Shown: positions 50,888 through 64,000, counted from the stretch's first letter. The stretch: 64,000 bases of DNA from Candidatus Nomurabacteria bacterium (GCA_029288805.1 JARIGO010000022.1:30754-94753); one strand, 5' to 3'. Numbers and translations: made by a program. The notes: generated from the sequence alone by a model not told the origin.

Positions 50888-51135
50888 ATAACCTTTTTAA
50901 GGGTCTTACAGTTTTTGTAATATGACCACCTCCAGATGTTAGAAGTGATATTGGGGTTGGATTACCGCATAGCTCAGATTCGTTAATCCCATAAGGTCTA
51001 AGAATGCTCATAGCTTTTTAATTAGTTTAAATAAAAAATACCACTTTTATTGCCTATCGTCAATGTAATTGCCCTTTTGAAAGCATGTGGTACTATTCTG
51101 GGTATATAAATAGCCCGTGGAAGGGAGAGTGAAAT

Positions 51136-52347
51136 ATGCCAAAATTAAGCCCAGAAATTGAAACTGCCGCGCGCATCAAAGTTATTGGTGTCGGAGGCTC
51201 AGGCGGAAATGCCGTTAACCACATGATCGGAGGACGAGTTCGTTCCGTGGAATTTATCGTAATGAACACTGATGTGCAGGATTTGCATAAGTCATCAGCG
51301 GAAAAGAAGATTCACCTTGGTAAGAACCTTACGAAGGGTCTTGGTGCTGGAATGAATCCAGAAGTTGGTATGCGTGCTGCTGAGGAAACAAAGGCAGAGA
51401 TCCAAGACGCAGTAAAAGGTGCTGACATGGTCTTTATTGCTTGCGGTATGGGTGGTGGTACTGGTACTGGCGCCGCTCCAGTCGTAGCTCGCGCTGCAAA
51501 GGAACAAGGCATTCTCACTGTGGCTGTTGTTACCAAGCCATTCTTCTTCGAAGGCAATCAGCGCATGAAAATCGCTGAACGCGGCATTGAAGAACTTGAA
51601 TCTGAAGTAGACGCTATCATCGTTATTCCTAACGACCGTCTTTTGGCTATCGCCGGCAAGGACACTACATTCAAGGATGCATTCGCAAAGTGTGATGAAG
51701 TGCTTCGTCAGGCTGTTGAAGGCATCTCTGACCTTATCGCCTCTCCAGGTATCATCAACGTCGACTTCGCCGACATGAAGTCAGTGCTCACTGATGCTGG
51801 TACAGCATTGATGGGTGTTGGTTTTGCAAATGGTGACGGACGTGCAGAAAAGGCAGCTATTCAGGCTATCAACTCTCCGCTTCTTGATATCTCTATCAAC
51901 GGTGCTCGCGGCGTGCTCTTCGCCATCTCTTCCAACGACGACCTCACCATGCAGGAATTCCAGGATTCTGCGAAAGTTATCACTGAGTCTATCGACAAGG
52001 ACGCTCGCGTCATCATCGGTACCATCATGGACGACCGCATGAAGAAGGGTGAAATGAAGATCACCGTTATCGCTACTGGCTTTCCTACCGAAGGTACAAA
52101 GAAGCAAAACCTCTTTGGTACTAGTGCCCAGCAGATCTTCCAGCGTACCGCTGAAGCTCAGCCAACAGCGCAAGCTCCATTGCCACAACAGCAGGCAGCT
52201 CCTATGATTGAGCGCGAACAGCCGATTGTAAAACCAATGGTTCAAAAAGCTGATGTTCGTCCAGAACCTGAAACACTGGAACCAGAAATTGGTGACGAAG
52301 AAGATTGGGGTGCAATTCCGGCCTTCCTCCGAAGAAATAAGAAATAA
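51136..52347 (+). CDS. ftsZ: cell division GTPase FtsZ
   Basis: GGGTGTG tubulin signature, T7 loop, and a C-terminal conserved peptide DIPAFLRR. Confidence 0.97.
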
Positions 52348-52349
52348 GA

Positions 52350-52380
52350 AAAAGCCATTCCTGACGGAATGGCTTTTTTG
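52350..52380. terminator. bidirectional terminator between ftsZ and the 52391-52798 lipoprotein gene
   Basis: AAGCCATTCC-tgac-GGAATGGCTT hairpin followed by TTTTTG. Confidence 0.7.
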
Positions 52381-52390
52381 TTTGGTTGTC

Positions 52391-52798
52391 TTACCAAGGA
52401 TTTCCACAGCGTTTAAGCATTTCATTGTAATACTCCGCTGCTTCGGCTGCAGTATGACCTTCACTAATATCCGTGATCAAATCATTGGGATAAATTGAGA
52501 AGTTCCACAACTCCTCGTATTCAGAATCATTGTCTGCAGGATCCCAAAAGAACACCATCACTTCAATGCAGTCAGGATCTCCCGTCTTAAAGACGGAATA
52601 TACTCTAAGACCGTTCGACAACGCTCTATCTCGGTACAACGCATTGGATATGTTTTGCCTTATAAGACGGTCTCGTAACAATGAGTAGTCCTTGCTTTCA
52701 ATCGGCACGTGCTGATTGGCAGGTTGGATGATTTTTTGAGAACAGGATGTGGCTATAATACAAACTAGTACCAAAACCACGATTGTACTTTTTTTCAT
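52391..52798 (-). CDS. hypothetical lipoprotein
   Basis: 135 aa. Signal peptide with IATSC lipobox, a strong GGAGGG SD 9 nt upstream, and an upstream terminator hairpin at about 52878-52905. Confidence 0.5.
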   Translation of the reverse strand: MKKSTIVVLVLVCIIATSCSQKIIQPANQHVPIESKDYSLLRDRLIRQNISNALYRDRALSNGLRVYSVFKTGDPDCIEVMVFFWDPADNDSEYEELWNFSIYPNDLITDISEGHTAAEAAEYYNEMLKRCGNPW

Positions 52799-53121
52799 GG
52801 ACGGATACCCTCCTTCGGTATGGTTTTACTTTTTATCATTGTGCCATATTTTATTTTTTATGAAAAATATAAAAAGCCGACACGCGTACGTATCGGCTTT
52901 TCGTAGGCCTAACACTGAAAACCATAGAGCCTGAGTTCTTTGGCACCGCTGACGTCCCTGGTTGATTTAAACTTCTTCGCAGGTTTTGGTTGTTTCCCGT
53001 TAATTTTAACTGTGGGTTGTGGCTGATTGGGAATGTATTTCTTGTCCATAATAAAAGGTTTTTATTACTTTACTGCTACTACAAAAAAGTGTCAATTATT
53101 CCTACTTCTGGACAGGTGGAG

Positions 53122-53127
53122 TATAAT
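53122..53127 (+). promoter_or_regulatory. -10 box (TATAAT) 6 nt upstream of the trxB ATG
   Basis: gtggagTATAATgaatccATG. Confidence 0.4.
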
Positions 53128-53133
53128 GAATCC

Positions 53134-54063
53134 ATGAATTACGATCTGATTATTATTGGGGGCGCGCCGGCAGGTGTGGCTGGAGCTGTATATGCCGCTC
53201 GAAAACGCTTGAACACATTGGTTATTGCAGAGGAAATTGGCGGACAGTCAGCGGTGTCTGACACTATTTATAACTGGATCGGTACGCCTGAGATCAGTGG
53301 CCAGGGCCTGGCTGACAGTTTGAAGGCTCATTTGGAATACTACACAAAAAATGACAACACTCTTACCCTATCATTGGGTCATCGTGCTACAGCCGTTGCA
53401 AAAATTGACGGTGGATTTTCTGTGACCACAGACAAGGAAACGCACACGGCCAAAAGCGTGCTTATCGCTACCGGTTCTCGTCATCGTCACCTTGAAGTGC
53501 CGGGTGCCGCGGATTTTGAACACAAGGGTATTTTGTACTGTGCTACGTGTGACGGCCCGCTCTTTTCCGGCCAGCCTGTTGCCGTTGTTGGCGGTGGCAA
53601 CGCCGCACTTGAAGCAGTGCTACAGCTTTCTGAATACGCCTCCCATGTGACACTGCTGCATCGCCGCAATGAGTTTCGCGCAGACGCTATTACCGTAGAA
53701 AAAGTGCAGCAGCTTTCCAATGCCACTATCCTTACCAATGTCACACTGACCCACGTTACCGGCTCAGCCTTTGTTGGTGGATTGAAATACAAAAACAATG
53801 GAGACGACACCGAGCAAGAACTCGCCGTTAATGCGGTCTTCGTAGAAATCGGACAATTGCCAAATACCGACATTGTGAAGGATGTCGTTACCCTTGATGA
53901 ATACAACAAGGTCGTGGTTGACCCTACCAATCAGCGCAGTAGCGTTCTTGGCATTTGGGCGGCTGGTGATTGTACAAACGGCCTGTACCACCAAAATAAC
54001 ATTGCTGCCGGTGATGCAGTGAAGGCTATTGAGGATCTGTATATCTGGCTAAAGAAAAACTAA
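53134..54063 (+). CDS. trxB: thioredoxin-disulfide reductase
   Basis: FAD GxGxxG (IIIGGAPAG), redox CATC (ILYCATCDGPLF), and NADPH GxGxxA. Start set at MNYDLIIIGG. Confidence 0.9.
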   Translation: MNYDLIIIGGAPAGVAGAVYAARKRLNTLVIAEEIGGQSAVSDTIYNWIGTPEISGQGLADSLKAHLEYYTKNDNTLTLSLGHRATAVAKIDGGFSVTTDKETHTAKSVLIATGSRHRHLEVPGAADFEHKGILYCATCDGPLFSGQPVAVVGGGNAALEAVLQLSEYASHVTLLHRRNEFRADAITVEKVQQLSNATILTNVTLTHVTGSAFVGGLKYKNNGDDTEQELAVNAVFVEIGQLPNTDIVKDVVTLDEYNKVVVDPTNQRSSVLGIWAAGDCTNGLYHQNNIAAGDAVKAIEDLYIWLKKN

Positions 54064-56273: not shown

Positions 56274-57435
56274 GAATATTCTTTCTTAAAATGCTATCAA
56301 TGCGCTCGGCCAAGGCCAGCATATCATCAGTCGTCTTGCCTCGTGTCGTTTCCGCTGCAGTACCAATGCGAATGCCTGAAGGGTCATTGGGTGTTTTGGT
56401 ATCAAATGGAATGGTGTTTTTATTTACAATGACCCCCTCCTTTTCCAATGCATCGCTTGCGTCCTTGCCTGATATGCCACCAATCCAGGTATCGACGAGG
56501 AATAAGTGCGTATCTGTTCCTCCTGAAATGATACGCCAGCCTTTTTCCTGCAAAGCCTGAGACAGTGTCTGGGCATTATTAATAACCTGTTGGGCATACA
56601 CACCAAACTCTGGCTGAGCTGCTTCATAGAGCGCCACGGCGATGCCAGCGATGGTATTCATGTGAGGACCGCCCTGTAAGCCTGGAAAGACTGCCTTGTT
56701 GATTTTTTCACTGTATGCCTTACGAGAAAAAATCAGCGCTCCACGCGGACCACGCAAGGTCTTGTGCGTAGTCATCATCACCGTATCCGCATACGCAAAT
56801 GGACTTGGATACACCCCACCAGCAATCAGTCCCGCTATGTGTGAAGCATCGACGTGCAGCAACGCTCCACTTTCATCTGCAATGGCACGCAAGGCATCCC
56901 AATCAATGATACGTGAGTATGCGGTATATCCGGCTACAATGACATTTGGTTTTTCCTGCAATGCAATGGCACGCAACGCATCATGATCAAGCACTTCCGT
57001 TTCCTGGTCTACTTCATACGCAATCTGCTTCCACCATTTCCCTGTTTGTGACACTTTGTGGCCGTGCGTAAGGTGTCCACCATGATCGAGCCGTAGGCCC
57101 ATAATGCTTCCTCCTTCAGGTACCAGTGCCGCATAGACAGCGAGATTGGCAGGTGATCCGGACAATGCCTGAACGTTAACTGACCATTCATCAGGAGAAA
57201 GGCTAAAGAGTTTCAATGCCCGCTGCTGCGCCAAGACTTCCAACGTATCCATGTGCTCATTACCGCCATAGTATCGCGCACCAGGATAGCCTTCCGCATA
57301 TTTGTTGGTCAACGTACTTCCCAGTGCCGTCATGACATCCTCCGAAACGTAATTCTCAGACGCAATCAAATTGACGTCTTGTTCCTGACGCTTGGCTTCG
57401 TACTGTAGCAATAGTTGTACGTCTGTATCCTTCAT
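56263..57435 (-). CDS. glyA: serine hydroxymethyltransferase
   Basis: LIASENYVSEDVMTALGS... and the PLP-lysine region TTHKTLRGPRGA. Confidence 0.95.
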   Translation of the reverse strand: MKDTDVQLLLQYEAKRQEQDVNLIASENYVSEDVMTALGSTLTNKYAEGYPGARYYGGNEHMDTLEVLAQQRALKLFSLSPDEWSVNVQALSGSPANLAVYAALVPEGGSIMGLRLDHGGHLTHGHKVSQTGKWWKQIAYEVDQETEVLDHDALRAIALQEKPNVIVAGYTAYSRIIDWDALRAIADESGALLHVDASHIAGLIAGGVYPSPFAYADTVMMTTHKTLRGPRGALIFSRKAYSEKINKAVFPGLQGGPHMNTIAGIAVALYEAAQPEFGVYAQQVINNAQTLSQALQEKGWRIISGGTDTHLFLVDTWIGGISGKDASDALEKEGVIVNKNTIPFDTKTPNDPSGIRIGTAAETTRGKTTDDMLALAERIDSILRKNIHDN

Positions 57436-57447
57436 TGGAGTAATGAT

Positions 57448-58335
57448 TTATCGAGGGAAAATATCGAGCAATTCGTTTGACTGGTAGAACAATGTACCAA
57501 GCTCGCCAAAGGCATATTGCTGACCACCGAGCGTAATGGTAGAACCCGCAACCTTAGGATTGGCATTTGGGTGTGAGGCACCAAATCCAATATTAAAGAG
57601 CGTTACCACGACATCCGGACGAGCGGTAACGTCATATCCAGACGCAGCCCATTGCGCTTCAATTTCCTTGATGAAGACCGCCGTATACAAATATGAGTAA
57701 TAGTGGTTGTGTGCATCAGTAAGACGGTTGTACAAGGTACTGTCATGATCTGCACCTGCAGGATATGCCAAGAGCGGTGCAATATTTGGACCAGGATAAA
57801 ACGGTGAGCTTGGATCGTTGGCATAGTTTTCGATCTGCGTAGCAGTATCCTGCTTGATGCCGGACACTCCCAATGAGAACTTGGACAATGAGGAAAGAAT
57901 CTTTAACGGTTCAAAATATTTCTTGAAACTTTCGCGGTTGGAAGTGAAATATCGCAATTGCTCCGGTATGACTGCAGCGGCAATCATGCGCTCTGGCACG
58001 CCCGTCTGACTTGAAACCTGCTCCAAGACACTGCCGTCTTTTGTGAGCGCATTCTGCAAGACATTCCATTCCTCGGTCTGATCCCAGTCACATGTCTTTG
58101 GCGTCTTGCCATTCACTGCCTGACAGGTGCTCGTCACTGTTGTGTTGGGCACAGCACCAAGAGAAACATTACGAACAGCGCTGGAGCCACGAACATTAAA
58201 GAGTCCGTACTGCATTGCCACAAAGACACCGGCAAAGACCAAACCGATGAACGCGAATAGCAGGATGATGATAAATACATAGCGGCGGATGCCAAACTTA
58301 GTATTGAGCCAGGAGAATGGGCGGAATTTTTTCAT
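57448..58335 (-). CDS. hypothetical N-terminally anchored extracytoplasmic protein
   Basis: 295 aa. One TM near the N-terminus, then a Cys-containing globular domain. No family assigned. Confidence 0.45.
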   Translation of the reverse strand: MKKFRPFSWLNTKFGIRRYVFIIILLFAFIGLVFAGVFVAMQYGLFNVRGSSAVRNVSLGAVPNTTVTSTCQAVNGKTPKTCDWDQTEEWNVLQNALTKDGSVLEQVSSQTGVPERMIAAAVIPEQLRYFTSNRESFKKYFEPLKILSSLSKFSLGVSGIKQDTATQIENYANDPSSPFYPGPNIAPLLAYPAGADHDSTLYNRLTDAHNHYYSYLYTAVFIKEIEAQWAASGYDVTARPDVVVTLFNIGFGASHPNANPKVAGSTITLGGQQYAFGELGTLFYQSNELLDIFPR

Positions 58336-58367
58336 GCAGACACTATACCAAAGATACCCGTATAAAA

Positions 58368-58400
58368 AAAGAAAAGCCTTTCCAAAGGAAAGGCTTTTTA
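58368..58400. terminator. bidirectional terminator bounding the housekeeping block
   Basis: AAAAGCCTTTCC-aaa-GGAAAGGCTTTT hairpin with T-runs on both strands. Confidence 0.65.
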
Positions 58401-58566
58401 ATATAACTATATAGTGAAGGTATTCAATCCGAAGAGTGAATACCGTGATTGCGAAAAGAACAGATTAAAGAACTTTTATATCTATAATGTATCAGATAGA
58501 ATGCAATTTGTCAAGGGCATTTTTAGGCAAAGGAAATGGCCCGGTTACTACGTAACCGGGCCGTGC

Positions 58567-58920
58567 TCACGACAACACTTCCCACACGCCGAAGATCGTG
58601 GAGAGCTTGTTTAGAATTGTCAGGTGGTGTTTTTGAACAAACCGTTTTATGTGTGGTTCCGCTTGGGCCACATACACAATGAACTTGCCGCGGTAGGTCT
58701 TATGAATTTCTGCATAGAATTCTTCCAAAGAAGGATTGCTATCATCAAATTCTACTTCAAACATGACAGACGTAACGTTCACGGCGGACAACACTGCCTC
58801 CGCTTCCCTAACTGTAGAAACGACGTGAATGTCATCGTTTGGCATGTACCTACGCAGGTCAGCTACAAACTTTTCAAACGGGGTCTTGCTAAAAAACAGG
58901 ACAACTTTTTTCTTTTGCAT
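58567..58920 (-). CDS. hypothetical protein with a receiver/flavodoxin-like alpha/beta pattern but no conserved phospho-acceptor Asp
   Basis: 117 aa. The VVLFF / IHVV / SVMFEVEF / FIVYVA beta-strand periodicity resembles a CheY fold. The acidic pocket residues are not conserved. Confidence 0.35.
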   Translation of the reverse strand: MQKKKVVLFFSKTPFEKFVADLRRYMPNDDIHVVSTVREAEAVLSAVNVTSVMFEVEFDDSNPSLEEFYAEIHKTYRGKFIVYVAQAEPHIKRFVQKHHLTILNKLSTIFGVWEVLS

Positions 58921-58999
58921 AATATAAAAACTTTTCTTTAGTATATATCAGATTTATTGACAAGTCAATATAGTGTGTTAAAGTAAGAAAAACATTCAA

Positions 59000-59536
59000 A
59001 TGATGAAAAAGAAAGATCTGTTGCTCGAGCAAATTCTTGGTCAGTGTTACATGGGATCCAGTACAAACTACTGGGTACCGTTGACAATCTATAACCCTGA
59101 GGCTCACTCGTACCAAACTCGTTATTTCAACGCCACGGATGTCTACCGCATGCGACAGGCGGGCATAGAGTGGCTGGTGCAAATGTGCAATCACGCTTTA
59201 GCGGAAAGATCCGAGCCATGGTGGCACCATGCATGGAACATTCGAGAACACCTTGAAGTTGACCCTGCAAAGTATATCTTTCCTGAGACGGACAAAATTG
59301 GAAGTGACGTCGAGAAAGAAAAAATTCTGCAGGCACTGTTTTGGTTTGCTAAGCAACTGTACGTTTGCAAGCGCTACAAATGGCGCCAGCCCCTCCTTTG
59401 GGAGGACATGAGAAAAGATTATCTCTCTTCAAGAAAATTTTTTGGCGCAGCTTCACCGTTCCACATACGCCTTCTGATGCTTCATATTGCCGCACAGATC
59501 GGCTACAACGAACTAGGAAATGTTGCGGGTGACTAA
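59000..59536 (+). CDS. hypothetical protein; C-terminal R-x4-H (RLLMLH) hints at a HEPN-like fold
   Basis: 178 aa, Trp-rich and helical. The call is speculative. Confidence 0.35.
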   Translation: MMKKKDLLLEQILGQCYMGSSTNYWVPLTIYNPEAHSYQTRYFNATDVYRMRQAGIEWLVQMCNHALAERSEPWWHHAWNIREHLEVDPAKYIFPETDKIGSDVEKEKILQALFWFAKQLYVCKRYKWRQPLLWEDMRKDYLSSRKFFGAASPFHIRLLMLHIAAQIGYNELGNVAGD

Positions 59537-59702
59537 ATGACCTAAGTCCTTCTTTAATACGGAGGGACTTTTTTATTTGTGAACTTGCGGCTTGCAGGAA
59601 ATAACACCCAGTTGACTACCGCTTTTACTTCCCTCTCCAAAAATCTCTTGGGAACAAAGGAGTTTTGGGAAAAAATCAGACATGATCTGGTAAACCTTAA
59701 AT

Positions 59703-60290
59703 CTATATCAAACGAAATACTGCGACAATAAACAATATCAGACCAAGAATAAACGAGGAGATGAAGGCGTAATAAATTATATTCAAAAAAAGTGCAGAGG
59801 AAGGCTTCATATTATTAGCAAACCTTTTGTTCTCCTCAATACTGTCTTCATTATACTGATCTATTTCTTCCGTAGTGAGAGTATTATCGTTCGCACTCAT
59901 TAGTATCGGCTTTATTAAGTCCAGTTGTTTCCCAAGCGACTTCATTTGTATGTCAGCGATCTTATTTAAATCCTTCCTGTCTTTTATTGGAGCATAAATA
60001 CTTAGAATAAATCCAAGTATGAACGTCAGTATAAATACATACATATCTGATCGAAGAATGATGTGGCTGAAATGTAGTGAAGACTGAAGAGCTAATGGGA
60101 TTACCACACCAACCACAACTATGCTGGCACTGATCAAAGCTAAATTTAGATTGTATTGTTTATCAGAAGTATTACGAAGTCCCTCTTGAATAAATTCAAC
60201 TTGAGAGTGATAAATGTCAGTTATTCTGTCTCTTGACCGTGAATATTCTTGCTTCGCGAGTTCCATTTGTTTTACAGAAAGTTGTGACAT
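59703..60290 (-). CDS. hypothetical membrane protein (AT-rich gene)
   Basis: 195 aa. N-terminal charged coiled segment and 3-4 TM helices. GC is noticeably lower than in the core genes. Confidence 0.45.
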   Translation of the reverse strand: MSQLSVKQMELAKQEYSRSRDRITDIYHSQVEFIQEGLRNTSDKQYNLNLALISASIVVVGVVIPLALQSSLHFSHIILRSDMYVFILTFILGFILSIYAPIKDRKDLNKIADIQMKSLGKQLDLIKPILMSANDNTLTTEEIDQYNEDSIEENKRFANNMKPSSALFLNIIYYAFISSFILGLILFIVAVFRLI

Positions 60291-60413
60291 TAATGTATTA
60301 TATCATTTTTGAGTTCGATTCCCCGTAACGTCTTAGGTTATTTTCAGAGAAATGAATTTGAAAACGGCCTTATAAATCAATGTTTATAAGTGTTTGAGGC
60401 TGTGAGCCGCGAG

Positions 60414-60485
60414 TGACCCTACGGGGAATCGAACCCCGATTAACGGCTTGAAAAGCCGGCGTCCTAACCGTTAGACGATAGGGCC
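60414..60485 (-). tRNA. tRNA-Glu (anticodon UUC)
   Basis: Manual cloverleaf: acceptor GGCCCTA/TAGGGTC, D-arm GTCT-AACGGTTA-GGAC, anticodon arm CCGGC-TTTTCAA-GCCG(T), 4-nt variable loop, T-arm CGGGG-TTCGATT-CCCCG, discriminator A, no encoded CCA. Confidence 0.85.
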
Positions 60486-60519
60486 AAATGAGCATTAGAA
60501 TAATGCCAACGTATTATAA

Positions 60520-60570
60520 ATAAAAATAGAAAAAAGTAAACCGCGCTTATGCTTCCATAAGCGCGGTCTT
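60520..60570 (-). terminator. terminator of the 60547-61080 gene; stem overlaps the stop codon
   Basis: ACCGCGCTTATG-gaag-CATAAGCGCGGT 12-bp stem on the minus strand, followed by TTTACTTTTTTCTATTTTT. Confidence 0.6.
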
Positions 60571-61080
60571 GCAAAGTAAGGGTGCGGTCTCATACCTAAA
60601 TGAATACAATTCGGCAAATACACATCCTTGATTGCTAAAAGAGACATAATAGACTTCATCCGCACGCGGTGGGTTTAGAGGAAACACCGTGCAGATAATA
60701 GGTCGTGGAGGGATACATAATGATGATTCGTCCTTCCTTGTACCGCTAAACTCAGGCTCAATTGCCTCAATGACATCACCGGAAGCAAAAACGATAAGCT
60801 TTTTCCCAGTTTCCTTCAGGAGCTTTAGAAAATGAAGCTTGCACATTTTGGGAAAACTCCTTGGCGGTAAGTGCCCGTACGTTTCCTCAATTTGTGGAGC
60901 GTCGAGATACAGGGTCCTGTGCGGATCGTTATCGTCCTCAATCATTTCCATCAGTCGTCCGGGAATTGAAATCTTGCAGATTTCAGGTTCGATACTGCTG
61001 TTCATTGGGCTCTTACACCTGGGTAATAAGCTCTTGCCATACTCAATGAATATGATCTCTGTTTCTTTAAGAAATCGCAT
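60547..61080 (-). CDS. hypothetical protein located between two divergent tRNA genes
   Basis: 177 aa and soluble, with several Cys. No recognisable family. Confidence 0.45.
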   Translation of the reverse strand: MRFLKETEIIFIEYGKSLLPRCKSPMNSSIEPEICKISIPGRLMEMIEDDNDPHRTLYLDAPQIEETYGHLPPRSFPKMCKLHFLKLLKETGKKLIVFASGDVIEAIEPEFSGTRKDESSLCIPPRPIICTVFPLNPPRADEVYYVSFSNQGCVFAELYSFRYETAPLLCKTALMEA

Positions 61081-61162
61081 AGTTAGTAAATTAAGGTATT
61101 TCTTCCAGTTTGCCTAAAATGCATTTTTTTGTCAAACTAGTCCGGTACCACTTCCCAACCCC

Positions 61163-61236
61163 GCGCGGTTAGCTCATATGGTTAGAGCGCAGCATTGACA
61201 TTGCTGAGGTGACAGGTTCGATCCCTGTATCGCGCA
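61163..61236 (+). tRNA. tRNA-Val (anticodon GAC)
   Basis: Manual cloverleaf: acceptor GCGCGGT/ATCGCGC, U8A9, D-arm GCTC-ATATGGTTA-GAGC, anticodon arm CAGCA-TTGACAT-TGCTG, variable AGGTG, T-arm ACAGG-TTCGATC-CCTGT, discriminator A. Confidence 0.9.
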
Positions 61237-61266
61237 CAGTATTAGACTGTAATTCGAAAAAGTAAA

Positions 61267-61307
61267 AAGCCTTATAACGTAAGGCTTTTTACTTTTCAAA
61301 AAGATTA
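61267..61307. terminator. long bidirectional hairpin between tRNA-Val and the GC-rich ORF
   Basis: AAAAGTAAAAAGCCTTA-taacg-TAAGGCTTTTTACTTTT, a stem of about 17 bp. Confidence 0.6.
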
Positions 61308-61325
61308 ACAATTTATAAAATATGC

Positions 61326-61607
61326 CTACACCTTGTAATGGCTGGAACCCCTGCGGAACAGCCTGTCCAGGAACCTCTTCTCAACCCTGGACTGCAGCTC
61401 CTCCCGTGACAGTGGCCTGCTGAGGTACACAAGCCGGTACAGCTGCGCCAGCCTAAAGAGCTCGTCGCGCGCCTGCTCGTCGCTCAGCACCCTTCCGTAC
61501 GCCTTCTCGTACAGCCCTTGGAACGTTTTCAAATTTTCTGGTGTCATGTCCATGCCCGCATGATGACACGCGGTGCCAGCCTTGGCCAGGGCTGAGTCGG
61601 CGGGCAA
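61326..61607 (-). CDS. hypothetical protein encoded in a GC-rich (about 60%) segment; likely horizontally acquired fragment
   Basis: 93-aa ORF. Local composition differs sharply from the flanks (runs like ctgcgccagcc, gtcgcgcgcctgctcgtcgctcag). It lies 90 nt downstream of the tRNA-Val 3' end. Confidence 0.35.
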   Translation of the reverse strand: MPADSALAKAGTACHHAGMDMTPENLKTFQGLYEKAYGRVLSDEQARDELFRLAQLYRLVYLSRPLSREELQSRVEKRFLDRLFRRGSSHYKV

Positions 61608-61658
61608 TTTACCTTACATAACTTTATTATTACTTTAAGATACAGATGCTATGATCTA

Positions 61659-62396
61659 TTGATGAAAGAAAGTATTCCATTAATAGACCCAATTTGGTAT
61701 TCCCCCGTTGTGGTGTTAAACCATGTTACAAGACTGACAAATTCACTATCTGAAAAAGACAGGAAGAGTAAGGAGTTTAGGAAGGTTGTTGAGGCACGAG
61801 CAGCCGCAATTACGCTTTTGGGTTTGATGAAGATTAACGGTACTCAATATTGGATGCAGATTGTGGATGATAAAGAGAGAAGCCCCGACATAAGAACTAT
61901 TTCCTATGCGACGGAGCAGCCGGAAAAATTTGACAACATGGAGCAGCAAGATGTCGAGGTAGTTGAATATGAGCAACATTCAGAAGGGGCCATTCCGGAG
62001 TTCTTAGCCTCGACCAAGTTTGGGCCCGGAAAGAGTTACGACGAGCAAACCCATATTCTTTGCCACCTGGGAGAAGGGACTGTCATAAATTTACCTGATA
62101 TTACTGAGATGAAAAACCAAATGGCCATAATCAATACAAAATCACCGATAGTATTATTAGGGGCAACTTCTCAGGAAGCCACTGACTATCAAATTATTCA
62201 ATTGAATCCCGGTGTTGGTATTTTGGTTGAATTCAACGTTGAGGATGAGGAGCGCATTTTATTCGGAAGGCCCGACTATAAAGGTATCATGTATTTTAAA
62301 AGGGGCTCAAGAAAACCCAGTGTGCATGATCCTAACGATAAGCATTATCCATTTGAAAATATAGGATATGTTCCTGATAAAAATGGCAATTATTGA
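61659..62396 (+). CDS. hypothetical protein
   Basis: 245 aa, soluble and acidic, in an AT-rich context. No motif assigned. Confidence 0.45.
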   Translation: MMKESIPLIDPIWYSPVVVLNHVTRLTNSLSEKDRKSKEFRKVVEARAAAITLLGLMKINGTQYWMQIVDDKERSPDIRTISYATEQPEKFDNMEQQDVEVVEYEQHSEGAIPEFLASTKFGPGKSYDEQTHILCHLGEGTVINLPDITEMKNQMAIINTKSPIVLLGATSQEATDYQIIQLNPGVGILVEFNVEDEERILFGRPDYKGIMYFKRGSRKPSVHDPNDKHYPFENIGYVPDKNGNY

Positions 62397-62523
62397 TATT
62401 ATGTTCTCCCCCACTTATTAACAATAGAGAAGTATTGTTTATCAGAATTTCTCACAAAGAAGTTCCTGACTTCGTACAATAGAGAGCACCAAGACGATAT
62501 TGACGATGTTTTTTGAAATAAAA

Positions 62524-62555
62524 AAGCCTGCAATATTTAAATAACAGGCTTCGGT
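62524..62555. terminator. bidirectional terminator between the convergent 61659-62396 and 62568-62873 genes
   Basis: AAGCCTG-caatatttaaataa-CAGGCTT hairpin with flanking A/T runs. Confidence 0.4.
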
Positions 62556-62567
62556 AGTTGAATTGGT

Positions 62568-62873
62568 TTACATCTTATGTTCCCATCCAGCTTTGGTTAA
62601 TATTTCAATTATTTGATCTTCTTTTAATTCACAGACATCTTTTTGCTGTGCATCAAAGTATTTTGCTTGACCACTTGCATAAAATGACCATGCCGGCACA
62701 CCTACTATGGTTGCGGCACTCGGACTAAAACCTATGCATGCAGAAAAGGTATCTCCTGGAGAAAATCCGAGCTCTCCTTCGAAAGTCATTCTGAACATGA
62801 GTATGTTCTCAGAATTATTTTTATCCGGAAAAACCTTTAGGTCAATTATTGTCATGACATTAACTTTATTCAT
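62568..62873 (-). CDS. hypothetical small protein (cassette gene preceded by repeat copy A)
   Basis: 101 aa. Has the same upstream repeat arrangement as the 63135-63563 gene. Confidence 0.4.
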   Translation of the reverse strand: MNKVNVMTIIDLKVFPDKNNSENILMFRMTFEGELGFSPGDTFSACIGFSPSAATIVGVPAWSFYASGQAKYFDAQQKDVCELKEDQIIEILTKAGWEHKM

Positions 62874-63011
62874 CGCTATATAAGTTTAATTGTTTACCGC
62901 AAATTCCATAAGAATTTCTGGTAAACACTTAAACCATTACAAAGAACTTTACGTTAATATAATATCACGTTTTATATTAAAAGTCAATAGATCCGTATCG
63001 GTTCAATGTCC

Positions 63012-63062
63012 TTAAATACCCTATTCCACTTCAAAATAATACCTTGCACCGTGTTCCATTAC
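63012..63062 (-). repeat. repeat copy A: diverged coding remnant (…WNTVQGIILKWNRVFKD…) homologous to copy B
   Basis: About 75% nt identity over 51 nt with 63620-63670. The minus-strand translation aligns with copy B at the protein level, but is bounded by stop codons on both sides. Confidence 0.6.
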
Positions 63063-63097
63063 TAACTCGTGACCGAACCTTTATCGCTCACAAATTG

Positions 63098-63128
63098 AAA
63101 AGGCTTCTATAAAATAGAAGCCTTTTTA
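63098..63128. terminator. terminator downstream of the 63135-63563 gene
   Basis: AAAAGGCTTCTAT-aaaa-TAGAAGCCTTTTT hairpin. Confidence 0.6.
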
Positions 63129-63134
63129 AGGAAT

Positions 63135-63563
63135 TTAAACAAAATGGAGTTCTCTGGCAGTAGTAACTTGACTGTACTCAAACAAGTCGAGCGTATGGTC
63201 GTTTAGTCGAACAGAATGGTGGAACCAAAAATTTATTCCTTTCTGAACTTCGTGGCCAGTAACCTCACAATATGCAGGGTACTGAATTGCATTAATAAAG
63301 TTTTCGATAGTCTCTTTAATGGTCGTACCACGTATCTTATCTTCAAGGGTTTTTCCATTAACATCCTTGAAGACAATGTAGCCCTCGCCAACAACGTTTA
63401 TGTAATATCCATCACCAGTAGTGGAAACGCACAATATGTTGTGGTCTTTTAAATGATAGTAACCACTTTTCCCATACGTAAATTTAAAAATTTCTTGCAT
63501 GCCTTTTAGGTATGCAAGCGGCTCCTTTTCTGTTGGAAGCAGTATTTGTTTTCTATAGTCCAT
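63135..63563 (-). CDS. hypothetical small protein, possibly SMI1/KNR4 (SUKH)-like immunity-type protein
   Basis: 142 aa. ILCVSTTGDGYYINVVGEGYIVFKD and the overall beta-rich pattern weakly resemble SUKH-1 immunity proteins. A toxin-remnant-like ORF ends 17 nt upstream. Confidence 0.35.
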   Translation of the reverse strand: MDYRKQILLPTEKEPLAYLKGMQEIFKFTYGKSGYYHLKDHNILCVSTTGDGYYINVVGEGYIVFKDVNGKTLEDKIRGTTIKETIENFINAIQYPAYCEVTGHEVQKGINFWFHHSVRLNDHTLDLFEYSQVTTARELHFV

Positions 63564-63579
63564 TTTTTTAAAGTTTTAC

Positions 63580-63726
63580 TCATATTGCCTTATGCAGAGA
63601 ATAAGTCAACCCTCTTTGTTTAAAGACCTTATTCCATTTGATAACAATATTCTGCACGGTGTCCCATTCCAGGCCGCTAACGCGCACAAATTTGACATTT
63701 CTTCCACGTAAGGTAAGGTAAAGAAA
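63580..63726 (-). pseudogene. short ORF/remnant containing repeat copy B (…RVSGLEWDTVQNIVIKWNKVFKQRGLTYSLHKAI*) ending 17 nt upstream of the 63135-63563 gene
   Basis: Open minus-strand frame of about 48 codons bounded upstream by TAA, with only TTG/GTG possible starts. It is homologous to copy A, which points to the C-terminal fragment of a larger gene family. Confidence 0.4.
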
Positions 63727-63751
63727 ATTCAAACTTTAAAAAAATACTCAT

Positions 63752-64000
63752 TATGGACCTTAAAGAAAAAACCATAAAAGACTGGCGAGAAGAGTACTTG
63801 AATGACTTCCTTCCTTCAAAGAAAAGAATGCTCCAACAAATTAACCTTCAGGAAGTGGAAATAATGACAGGGCTCATTAAGGCTATTAAAGAAGCCATCC
63901 CTGCAGGAAAATGGAAAACATATTTTGACGAACATCTTGATTACTCACTTCCGTGGGAAAGAACGGTTATTTCAAACAGCGAAGGTGCTAAGGGTCATCT
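63752..64000 (+). CDS. hypothetical protein, 5' part (continues beyond window)
   Basis: Open frame from ATG 63752 (MDLKEKTIKDWREEYLNDFLPSKKRML...) to the window edge. Confidence 0.4.

Follow-up and report, generated by a model that had tools for sequence, protein, structure and literature searches.

Large serine recombinases (LSRs) build up the SCCmec composite islands by accretion at the 3' end of a target gene, rlmH. In Prochlorococcus, tycheposon islands lie adjacent to tRNA genes, undergo repeated integration and contain fragmented integrases as well as partial tRNAs (bioRxiv 10.1101/2020.12.28.424599). The directionality factors (RDFs) known for LSRs share no common sequence or structural homology, some of them being all-helical, and the criterion for an RDF is binding to its cognate LSR where the second DNA-binding domain (DBD2) meets the coiled coil (PMC12286644). 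An RDF is further expected to switch its LSR to excisive recombination, attL x attR. Since RDFs are themselves unrelated in sequence and structure, the lack of similarity to known RDFs does not count as evidence against a candidate. The locus analysed here belongs to a stretch of 64,000 nucleotides, hereafter called the window, and consists of a short GC-rich block, with one small gene, near a tRNA-Val gene. The reading that we favour, at a probability of about 0.6, is that this block is a small-gene module of LSR-type integrative elements, present as a solo copy in a decayed tRNA-adjacent island.

The GC-rich block (61326-61610, assigned to no strand) is 285 nt long and comprises the coding sequence of the small gene together with a GC-rich 5' leader of about 54 nt. 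The sequence-only reading had estimated by eye that this segment, at around 60%, is GC-richer than a window in the mid-40s, and the measurements agree with it: the block has 59.6% GC against 44.2% for the 64-kb window, a value reached by just 0.02% of all 285-nt windows (mean GC 0.442, sd 0.044). A windowed GC computation, set beforehand as a check, found a strong deviation with the block at the peak of the 64 kb, where the 285-nt scan has its maximum of 0.604 (start at 61321). In a two-state likelihood segmentation the GC-rich segment ran from 61340 to 61605 and had 62% GC, compared with 41% for the surroundings. The block is flanked by two direct copies of the 7-nt sequence CAATTTA (61309-61315 and 61604-61610); as such a repeat would arise at random with an estimated chance of about 5%, it makes a weak case for a target-site duplication.

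The block contains an ORF of 93 aa on the minus strand (61326-61607, TTG start), as had been reported earlier, and the same report of no local homologues holds in that no paralogue was found in the 64-kb window. Because 27% of block shuffles have at least 93 open codons, an open frame of this length is no evidence alone. The composition of the frame is foreign: GC at codon positions 1/2/3 is 0.60/0.42/0.79, and the third-position value (GC3) lies 6.4 sd above that of the 66 long ORFs of the window (0.435 +/- 0.055, maximum 0.539). Two synonymous-codon models were compared, one derived from LSR-element loci of 59-64% GC and one from the window's own genes. The 93-aa ORF has a codon log2 likelihood of -154.3 under the first and -183.7 under the second, and is thus 29 bits better described by the loci of about 60% GC, while its native neighbours have the opposite preference, for the window model; the deviation in codon usage that was to be checked is therefore present in both measures. 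In Rfam searches of the window in gathering mode only tRNAs passed and the block was unmatched, and a permissive search (E <= 10) returned nothing in the block except a 16-bit miRNA match. Folding of the block against shuffles gave z-scores of -0.95 and -1.44 for the two strands, with no notable structure. From the codon-position signal and the lack of both an Rfam match and a folding signal it follows that the block is intact protein-coding sequence, not RNA, and that it evolved in a GC-rich genome.

The most likely coding sequence is 75 aa long and runs on the minus strand from the ATG at 61553 to 61326 (MDMTPENLKTFQGLYEKAYG...), since most homologues begin at query residue 19, which is an ATG. 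The segment 61554-61607 (minus strand) would then be the GC-rich leader, or else an 18-codon N-terminal extension if the TTG at 61607 is the start. This alternative start, giving 93 aa, has AAGG 4 nt upstream, and native genes of the window are mostly devoid of clear ribosome-binding sites. AlphaFold2, run with the family alignment, predicted three helices (residues 5-19, 25-44 and 50-69; mean pLDDT 81.5), of which the first two are very confident and the third less so. The ORF is missing from a collection of 15 billion proteins in which the neighbouring 245-aa protein is found at 100% identity, and for this reason the small gene was probably not called in the source annotation.

A search of the single ORF against word-indexed proteins gave no match, and Pfam, PHROGs and PADLOC returned nothing significant for the ORF and eight neighbours. 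When 1.84 billion representatives were searched exhaustively with phmmer, 14 small proteins of 47-146 aa were recovered (E 3e-7 to 1e-3). The best match is 45% identical (E = 3e-7), and one of these proteins, P0006 (146 aa, internally repetitive), was excluded from the alignments. With a profile search the family grows to 39 clusters, which have no Pfam domain, no organism labels and, as their sole source name, one 'hypothetical protein' of JGI. PF24406 matched two members below threshold (19.5 bits against a cut-off of 27), and the PDB, searched by sequence and by fold, gave nothing informative for the family. These are unannotated helical proteins of about 50-75 aa, known from metagenomes only, with the consensus M.LSPEEL..F...Y.K.FG..L...EA.....L..LY. 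The near-invariant residues F11, Y15, K17, L23, A28, L35, L38 and Y39 are all kept in the window's copy, which on the strength of this similarity is a member of an unnamed family of small, predicted helical proteins. No relative more than 55% identical to it was found in any collection searched. DNA and protein searches of 72,556 plasmids and 50,697 phage records gave no family match; neither did profile, DNA word and neighbour-gene searches of viral contigs, nor a protein query against JGI metagenome contigs. A DNA pattern search of JGI returned one true locus and two chance matches in contigs of 70% GC. The GC content of family members ranges from 34 to 64%, and in most carriers the small gene has the same GC as its genome. 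A second member that is GC-richer than its surroundings is found in L089 (5969-6190; 57% GC and GC3 of 0.74 in a contig of 49%).

The family is associated with LSRs. Eleven distinct contexts were read, and nine are informative in the sense of having enough flanking DNA (the contig of L089 stops 141 nt past the gene). In each of the nine informative contexts, which are all outside the window, the family gene is no more than 5.5 kb from an LSR gene or from the 3' fragment of one. The LSR gene is 0.1-5.4 kb away in L081, L087, L088, L093, L094 and L095-097. The main subclade (L081, L093, L094 and L095-097; 59-64% GC; consensus MGLSPEELQTFKDAYRKAFGEDLDD...) has a common layout: after the small gene come between one and three variable genes (CHAP, DEAD/ResIII helicases, an Mrr-like nuclease or unknowns), next a convergent LSR and last a ParB_N protein. 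In L088 (46% GC) the small gene is 113 nt upstream of the LSR on the same strand, and in L087 (34% GC) it is also upstream of a same-strand LSR, with one overlapping 427-aa gene between them. Pairwise identity among the three LSR types is 32-47%. Four of the LSR-bearing contexts represent a single type of element, with recombinases 80-89% identical, so that the independent support for the association amounts to about three lineages and, in addition, the contexts with LSR fragments. The latter are L082, L083 and L092 (52-54% GC), further copies of the main subclade, where the small gene is found 0.14-1.7 kb downstream of a tRNA-Ser and is followed each time by a stand-alone copy, of about 200 nt, of the last ~52 LSR codons. 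Within the main subclade, DNA similarity between copies extends from about -62 to +140 relative to the ATG, so that the conserved unit is a short leader plus the core coding sequence. The leader in the window aligns loosely with the conserved leader of about 60 nt of this subclade. A resemblance of the 5' end of the block (TTGCCCGCCGACTCAG) to the att boundary of the subclade, a post-hoc and gapped match, was dropped because the ungapped leader match is better and because no att-like core of the subclade type is present in the 64-kb window.

The related loci have further features of their own. Two to four copies of the LSR 3' segment occur per locus, at cassette boundaries; they lie in L081 (1102-1312, 2423-2639, 3621-3841 and 7183-7384), L093 (3891-4110, 5663-5890 and 11304-11525), L094 (5679-5891 and 7889-8098), L082 (6894-7080), L083 (6486-6683) and L092 (reverse strand, 1463-1660 and 2271-2458). 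These copies finish at the boundary with a constant end, ...TTCGAACGTCATCTACCTGCCCCCGC, similar to the tRNA-Ser 3' end (...GTTCGAATCTCTCCGCCTCCGC). The DNA past the boundary, TAAC TGACTCAG.G.GAGTCA AAG, is common to the stand-alone copies and to the tRNA-Ser flank of L082, and contains a 6-bp inverted repeat. A candidate mimic of the tRNA-Ser 3' end occurs inside the LSR coding end, reading ...CCTGCCCCCGC up to the boundary and TAACTGACTCAG.G.GAGTCA from there on. The leader of the small gene begins 50-110 nt past the boundary. Cargo of the cassettes includes CBASS-like SMODS/SLATT, helicases, Mrr, CHAP and Fic, and some cassettes are without a recombinase of their own; in L081, two copies of the small gene flank a DUF3892 gene and a CBASS-like SMODS/SLATT pair. 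As judged from these repeats, the arrangement suggests serial insertion of cassettes at a site in the recombinase's own coding end and at tRNA-Ser, in which each cassette may bring a replacement recombinase end, in these related loci and not in the window.

In the window, the small gene is convergent with a tRNA-Val gene (anticodon GAC; 61163-61237, plus strand) that was identified by ARAGORN and by Rfam (RF00005, 61.3 bits). The distance from the tRNA 3' end to the block, put earlier at about 90 nt, was measured as 88 nt. Between the two genes lies a perfect hairpin with a 17-bp stem (61258-61296, no strand assigned; arms 61258-61274 and 61280-61296) and T-runs on both strands, whose folding energies on the two strands are -21.6 and -22.6 kcal/mol (z -5.0 and -5.2, with no shuffle as good). 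Flanked by the 3' ends of two convergent genes and carrying T-runs on either strand, this hairpin is best read as a bidirectional intrinsic terminator, common to tRNA-Val (plus) and the small gene (minus). The hairpin that had been thought to bound the block is therefore real, but it would be a terminator between convergent genes and not the border of an element.

Divergent from the small gene is an ORF of 245 aa (61659-62396, plus strand, ATG at 61662; 40.7% GC), with 24 homologues (clusters) at 41-58% identity in an unannotated family of Candidatus Paceibacterota MAGs; one cluster of this family was found on 45 contigs, and P0048, which is encoded on an NCBI contig of 105,370 bp, presumably the window's source, is 100% identical to the ORF of the window. 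It is either a native-lineage gene or old cargo. Next to it, in a 44-aa ORF of 36% GC (62399-62533, minus strand), is a relic of an LSR C-terminus of the L088 type, covering residues 13-41 (62411-62497) and thus about 30 codons, at 0.8 kb from the small gene. It was detected by tblastn against the window (E 0.017). Aligned with the C-terminal end of the L088 LSR, it shows 48% identity and 79% positives across 29 aa (pairwise E 1e-10), up to a few residues from either stop codon; it scores 42.7 bits, and 60 shuffled versions of the window gave at most 24.6. At the DNA level, 30 of 36 nt are identical to L088 over AAGTTCCTGAC.TCGT..AATA.AGAGCAC. Nucleotide identity so far above the expectation from protein identity suggests that this 36-nt core may hold a conserved DNA site. 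Beyond the relic, an ORF of 101 aa (62568-62873, minus strand) has a weak match (E 8e-4) to phrog_12319, a phage family of unknown function. Its terminator hairpin (62524-62551) resembles the tRNA-Val terminator and is the source of a spurious 31-nt inverted repeat (61282-61312 and 62499-62529), which was discarded as merely two terminators alike.

The local order is thus tRNA-Val (plus), hairpin, small gene (minus), 245-aa gene (plus), LSR 3' relic (minus) and the terminator that belongs to the next gene. A tblastn search of the 64 kb with four LSRs found no intact recombinase, and no homologue of ParB or of the cargo was found there either; the window stops at 64000, 2.4 kb past the small gene. 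The 24-nt 3' end of tRNA-Val has no second copy in the window with up to 3 mismatches allowed, hence no such repeat pair, and no tRNA-Val mimic was found in the L088 recombinase. Unlike in the tRNA-Ser cases, it is the 3' end of the small gene that faces the tRNA. The small gene and the relic share a strand, with the small gene downstream, unlike the layout of the main subclade or the order in L087 and L088. The idea of an integrative element at the tRNA 3' end has accordingly held up in part: the foreign codon usage, the LSR-linked family, the three copies after tRNA-Ser and the relic at 0.8 kb speak for it, while the lack of an intact integrase and of a tRNA-Val 3'-end repeat in the window, and the different gene orientation, speak against it. 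These searches of the window give no support to an insertion targeted to tRNA-Val itself.

Signs of mobile DNA extend over a wider stretch. From 57400 to 64000, beyond SHMT, the window has orphan ORFs with a GC content that varies from 31% to 56% in 300-nt windows and reaches 60% in the 285-nt scan, and its last 2 kb are, at 36.5% GC, under the window average. An inverted copy of the 3' end of tRNA-Glu (60313-60332, plus strand; 20 nt, 18 of them matching; GTTCGATTCCCCGTAACGTC), covering the T-arm and the acceptor 3' end, lies tail-to-tail with tRNA-Glu(TTC) (60413-60485, minus strand), 80 nt beyond it; an integration or rearrangement long ago may have left it there as a partial tRNA. No counterpart of the 57.4-64 kb stretch was found in 16 related Patescibacteria loci (SHMT 60-68% identical), which have SHMT-FolD alone in common with the window and no tRNA-Val nearby. 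Given the recombinase relic, the partial tRNA-Glu, the orphan ORFs of mixed GC and the lack of a counterpart in these relatives, the best reading of the stretch around tRNA-Val is a decayed, repeatedly used tRNA-adjacent island.

By the identity of its SHMT, which is 60-68% to Paceibacterota-like MAGs and about 50-54% to other phyla, the host is a Patescibacterium near Paceibacterota. The order FtsA-FtsZ-TrxB (window 51133-54060) is also found in L083 (9484-11750; MAG GCA_022842945.1), with 55% identity in FtsZ and 57% in TrxB, and there a family member is located a few kb from FtsZ-TrxB, near tRNA-Glu(TTC) and tRNA-Ser. In the carrier L082, GroEL scores higher against Thermus GroEL than against GroEL2 of M. 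tuberculosis. Neither of these two carriers, the ones that were judged taxonomically, looks actinobacterial. The earlier comparison with Saccharibacteria as epibionts does not fit a Paceibacterota-like Patescibacterium. A genome or element of about 60% GC was the source of the small gene, and the arrival is regarded as recent since the gene stands 16 GC points above its host whereas most carriers match the GC of their own genome. We infer from the difference of 24 GC points between the small gene and the relic of 36% GC that the two arrived separately.

We propose that the small gene, with its own short GC-rich leader, would have been imported as a unit from the source of about 60% GC into the Patescibacterium of 44% GC, and that a module which elsewhere is the gene nearest to the attachment junction, or just upstream of the recombinase, would have reached a tRNA-adjacent hotspot through the traffic of LSR elements, where it would now persist as a solo copy without its recombinase. 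The main rival to this proposal is untargeted uptake of a stray fragment, that is, a foreign gene acquired by plain DNA uptake and illegitimate recombination at an insertion-tolerant spot, with the relic unrelated and the proximity to tRNA-Val incidental. Uptake of this kind would agree with the lack of att repeats and of a recombinase in the window, with the GC distance between relic and gene, with the mere 285 bp and one gene unit of the block, and with the flanking CAATTTA repeat. We nevertheless regard it as rather unlikely, given that an LSR gene or fragment adjoins the family in nine of nine informative contexts and that a relic less than 0.8 kb away would then be a coincidence. The sequence-only reading had raised, for the case that the organism is an epibiont of high-GC hosts, a direct transfer from host to symbiont, with Saccharibacteria on Actinobacteria as the example. 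Some Patescibacteria live on Actinobacteria, and a gene of 60% GC with a GC3 of 0.79 would suit such a donor. This transfer is unsupported, however, and we consider it improbable, because the host is Paceibacterota-like, none of the 39 family members has an informative name or organism label, the family spans 34-64% GC, and the plasmid and phage collections gave no match. The two carriers judged taxonomically point away from Actinobacteria too, one (L083) through the gene order FtsA-FtsZ-TrxB and the FtsZ identity that it shares with the window genome and the other (L082) through its Thermus-leaning GroEL.

Three further explanations carry still less weight. The source is a metagenome-assembled contig and the ORF is missing from the protein collection, as would be the case for an assembly chimera or a small contaminant insertion; since the block is contig-internal, holds in its 285 bp exactly one intact gene unit of leader and coding sequence, has its terminator in common with the tRNA and adjoins the relic of a matching element type, such an artefact is very improbable. 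An old native gene, with a composition shaped by selection or amino-acid content, could be argued from the member in L083, whose neighbourhood with FtsZ-TrxB and tRNA-Glu(TTC) is loosely similar to that of the window, but the intervening genes in L083 are not homologous and its copy is only about 45% identical. As GC3 is a synonymous-site signal that amino-acid content does not explain, and as in other carriers the small gene has the GC of its genome, a native origin is hardly credible. The least probable alternative, with almost no weight in our assessment, is a GC-rich structured non-coding RNA, even though a local GC peak in an intergenic-looking spot by a tRNA is where one would be looked for, such RNAs often being conspicuous in AT-rich genomes. 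The block has strong codon periodicity and protein-level homologues with synonymous divergence, besides having no Rfam match or unusual folding.

With regard to function, the small, predicted helical protein is encoded attachment-proximally in LSR elements or directly upstream of the LSR, which makes it a candidate accessory protein that would act on the recombinase as a directionality factor or as a regulator. We put this forward tentatively, as an analogy to be held well below even odds. Doubtful, by a further small step, is the analogy with integrons, in which the protein would be a dedicated accessory factor of an undescribed integron-like cassette system driven by LSRs. In such a system, and with as little assurance, attachment would take place at the tRNA-Ser 3' end and at its mimic in the last ~52 codons of the recombinase, and each cassette would consist of leader and small gene, defence-type cargo and a replacement 3' end of the recombinase. 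If this were true, the block in the window would be the head of a cassette that had entered a Patescibacterium despite a difference of 16 GC points.

The feature in the window is a fairly ordinary horizontally acquired gene, and the family is the more interesting lead. The block marks the tRNA-Glu/tRNA-Val stretch as a landing zone for mobile DNA and adds a small gene that was apparently missed in the source annotation. It also reveals an unnamed family of small proteins that is a consistent companion of LSRs in uncultured bacteria. If the family were a directionality factor, its members would provide new pairs of recombinase and partner, of the kind sought for genome engineering, and a means to follow how cassettes enter and leave the reduced genomes of Patescibacteria.

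The described systems resemble different parts of this picture. Like the tycheposon islands, the region is a variable tRNA-adjacent patch of mixed composition in which orphan genes occur along with pieces of a recombinase and of a tRNA. It differs from them in its Patescibacterium host and in having no intact element or tRNA-Val repeat visible in the window, and nothing like the recurring small-gene module is among the features described for tycheposon islands (bioRxiv 10.1101/2020.12.28.424599). Like the RDFs of LSRs, the family comprises small proteins encoded in the same elements as the LSR, directly upstream of it and co-oriented in L087 and L088, and adjacent to the junction in the main subclade. 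Unlike the situation of an RDF, the cognate LSR is gone from the window, and the candidate function would be idle here. The cassettes of the related loci are arranged in series as in SCCmec, each closing with a repeated target 3' end and some having no recombinase; unlike in SCCmec, the array belongs to the related loci and not to the window, and its target is the tRNA-Ser-like 3' end of the LSR gene itself in place of rlmH.
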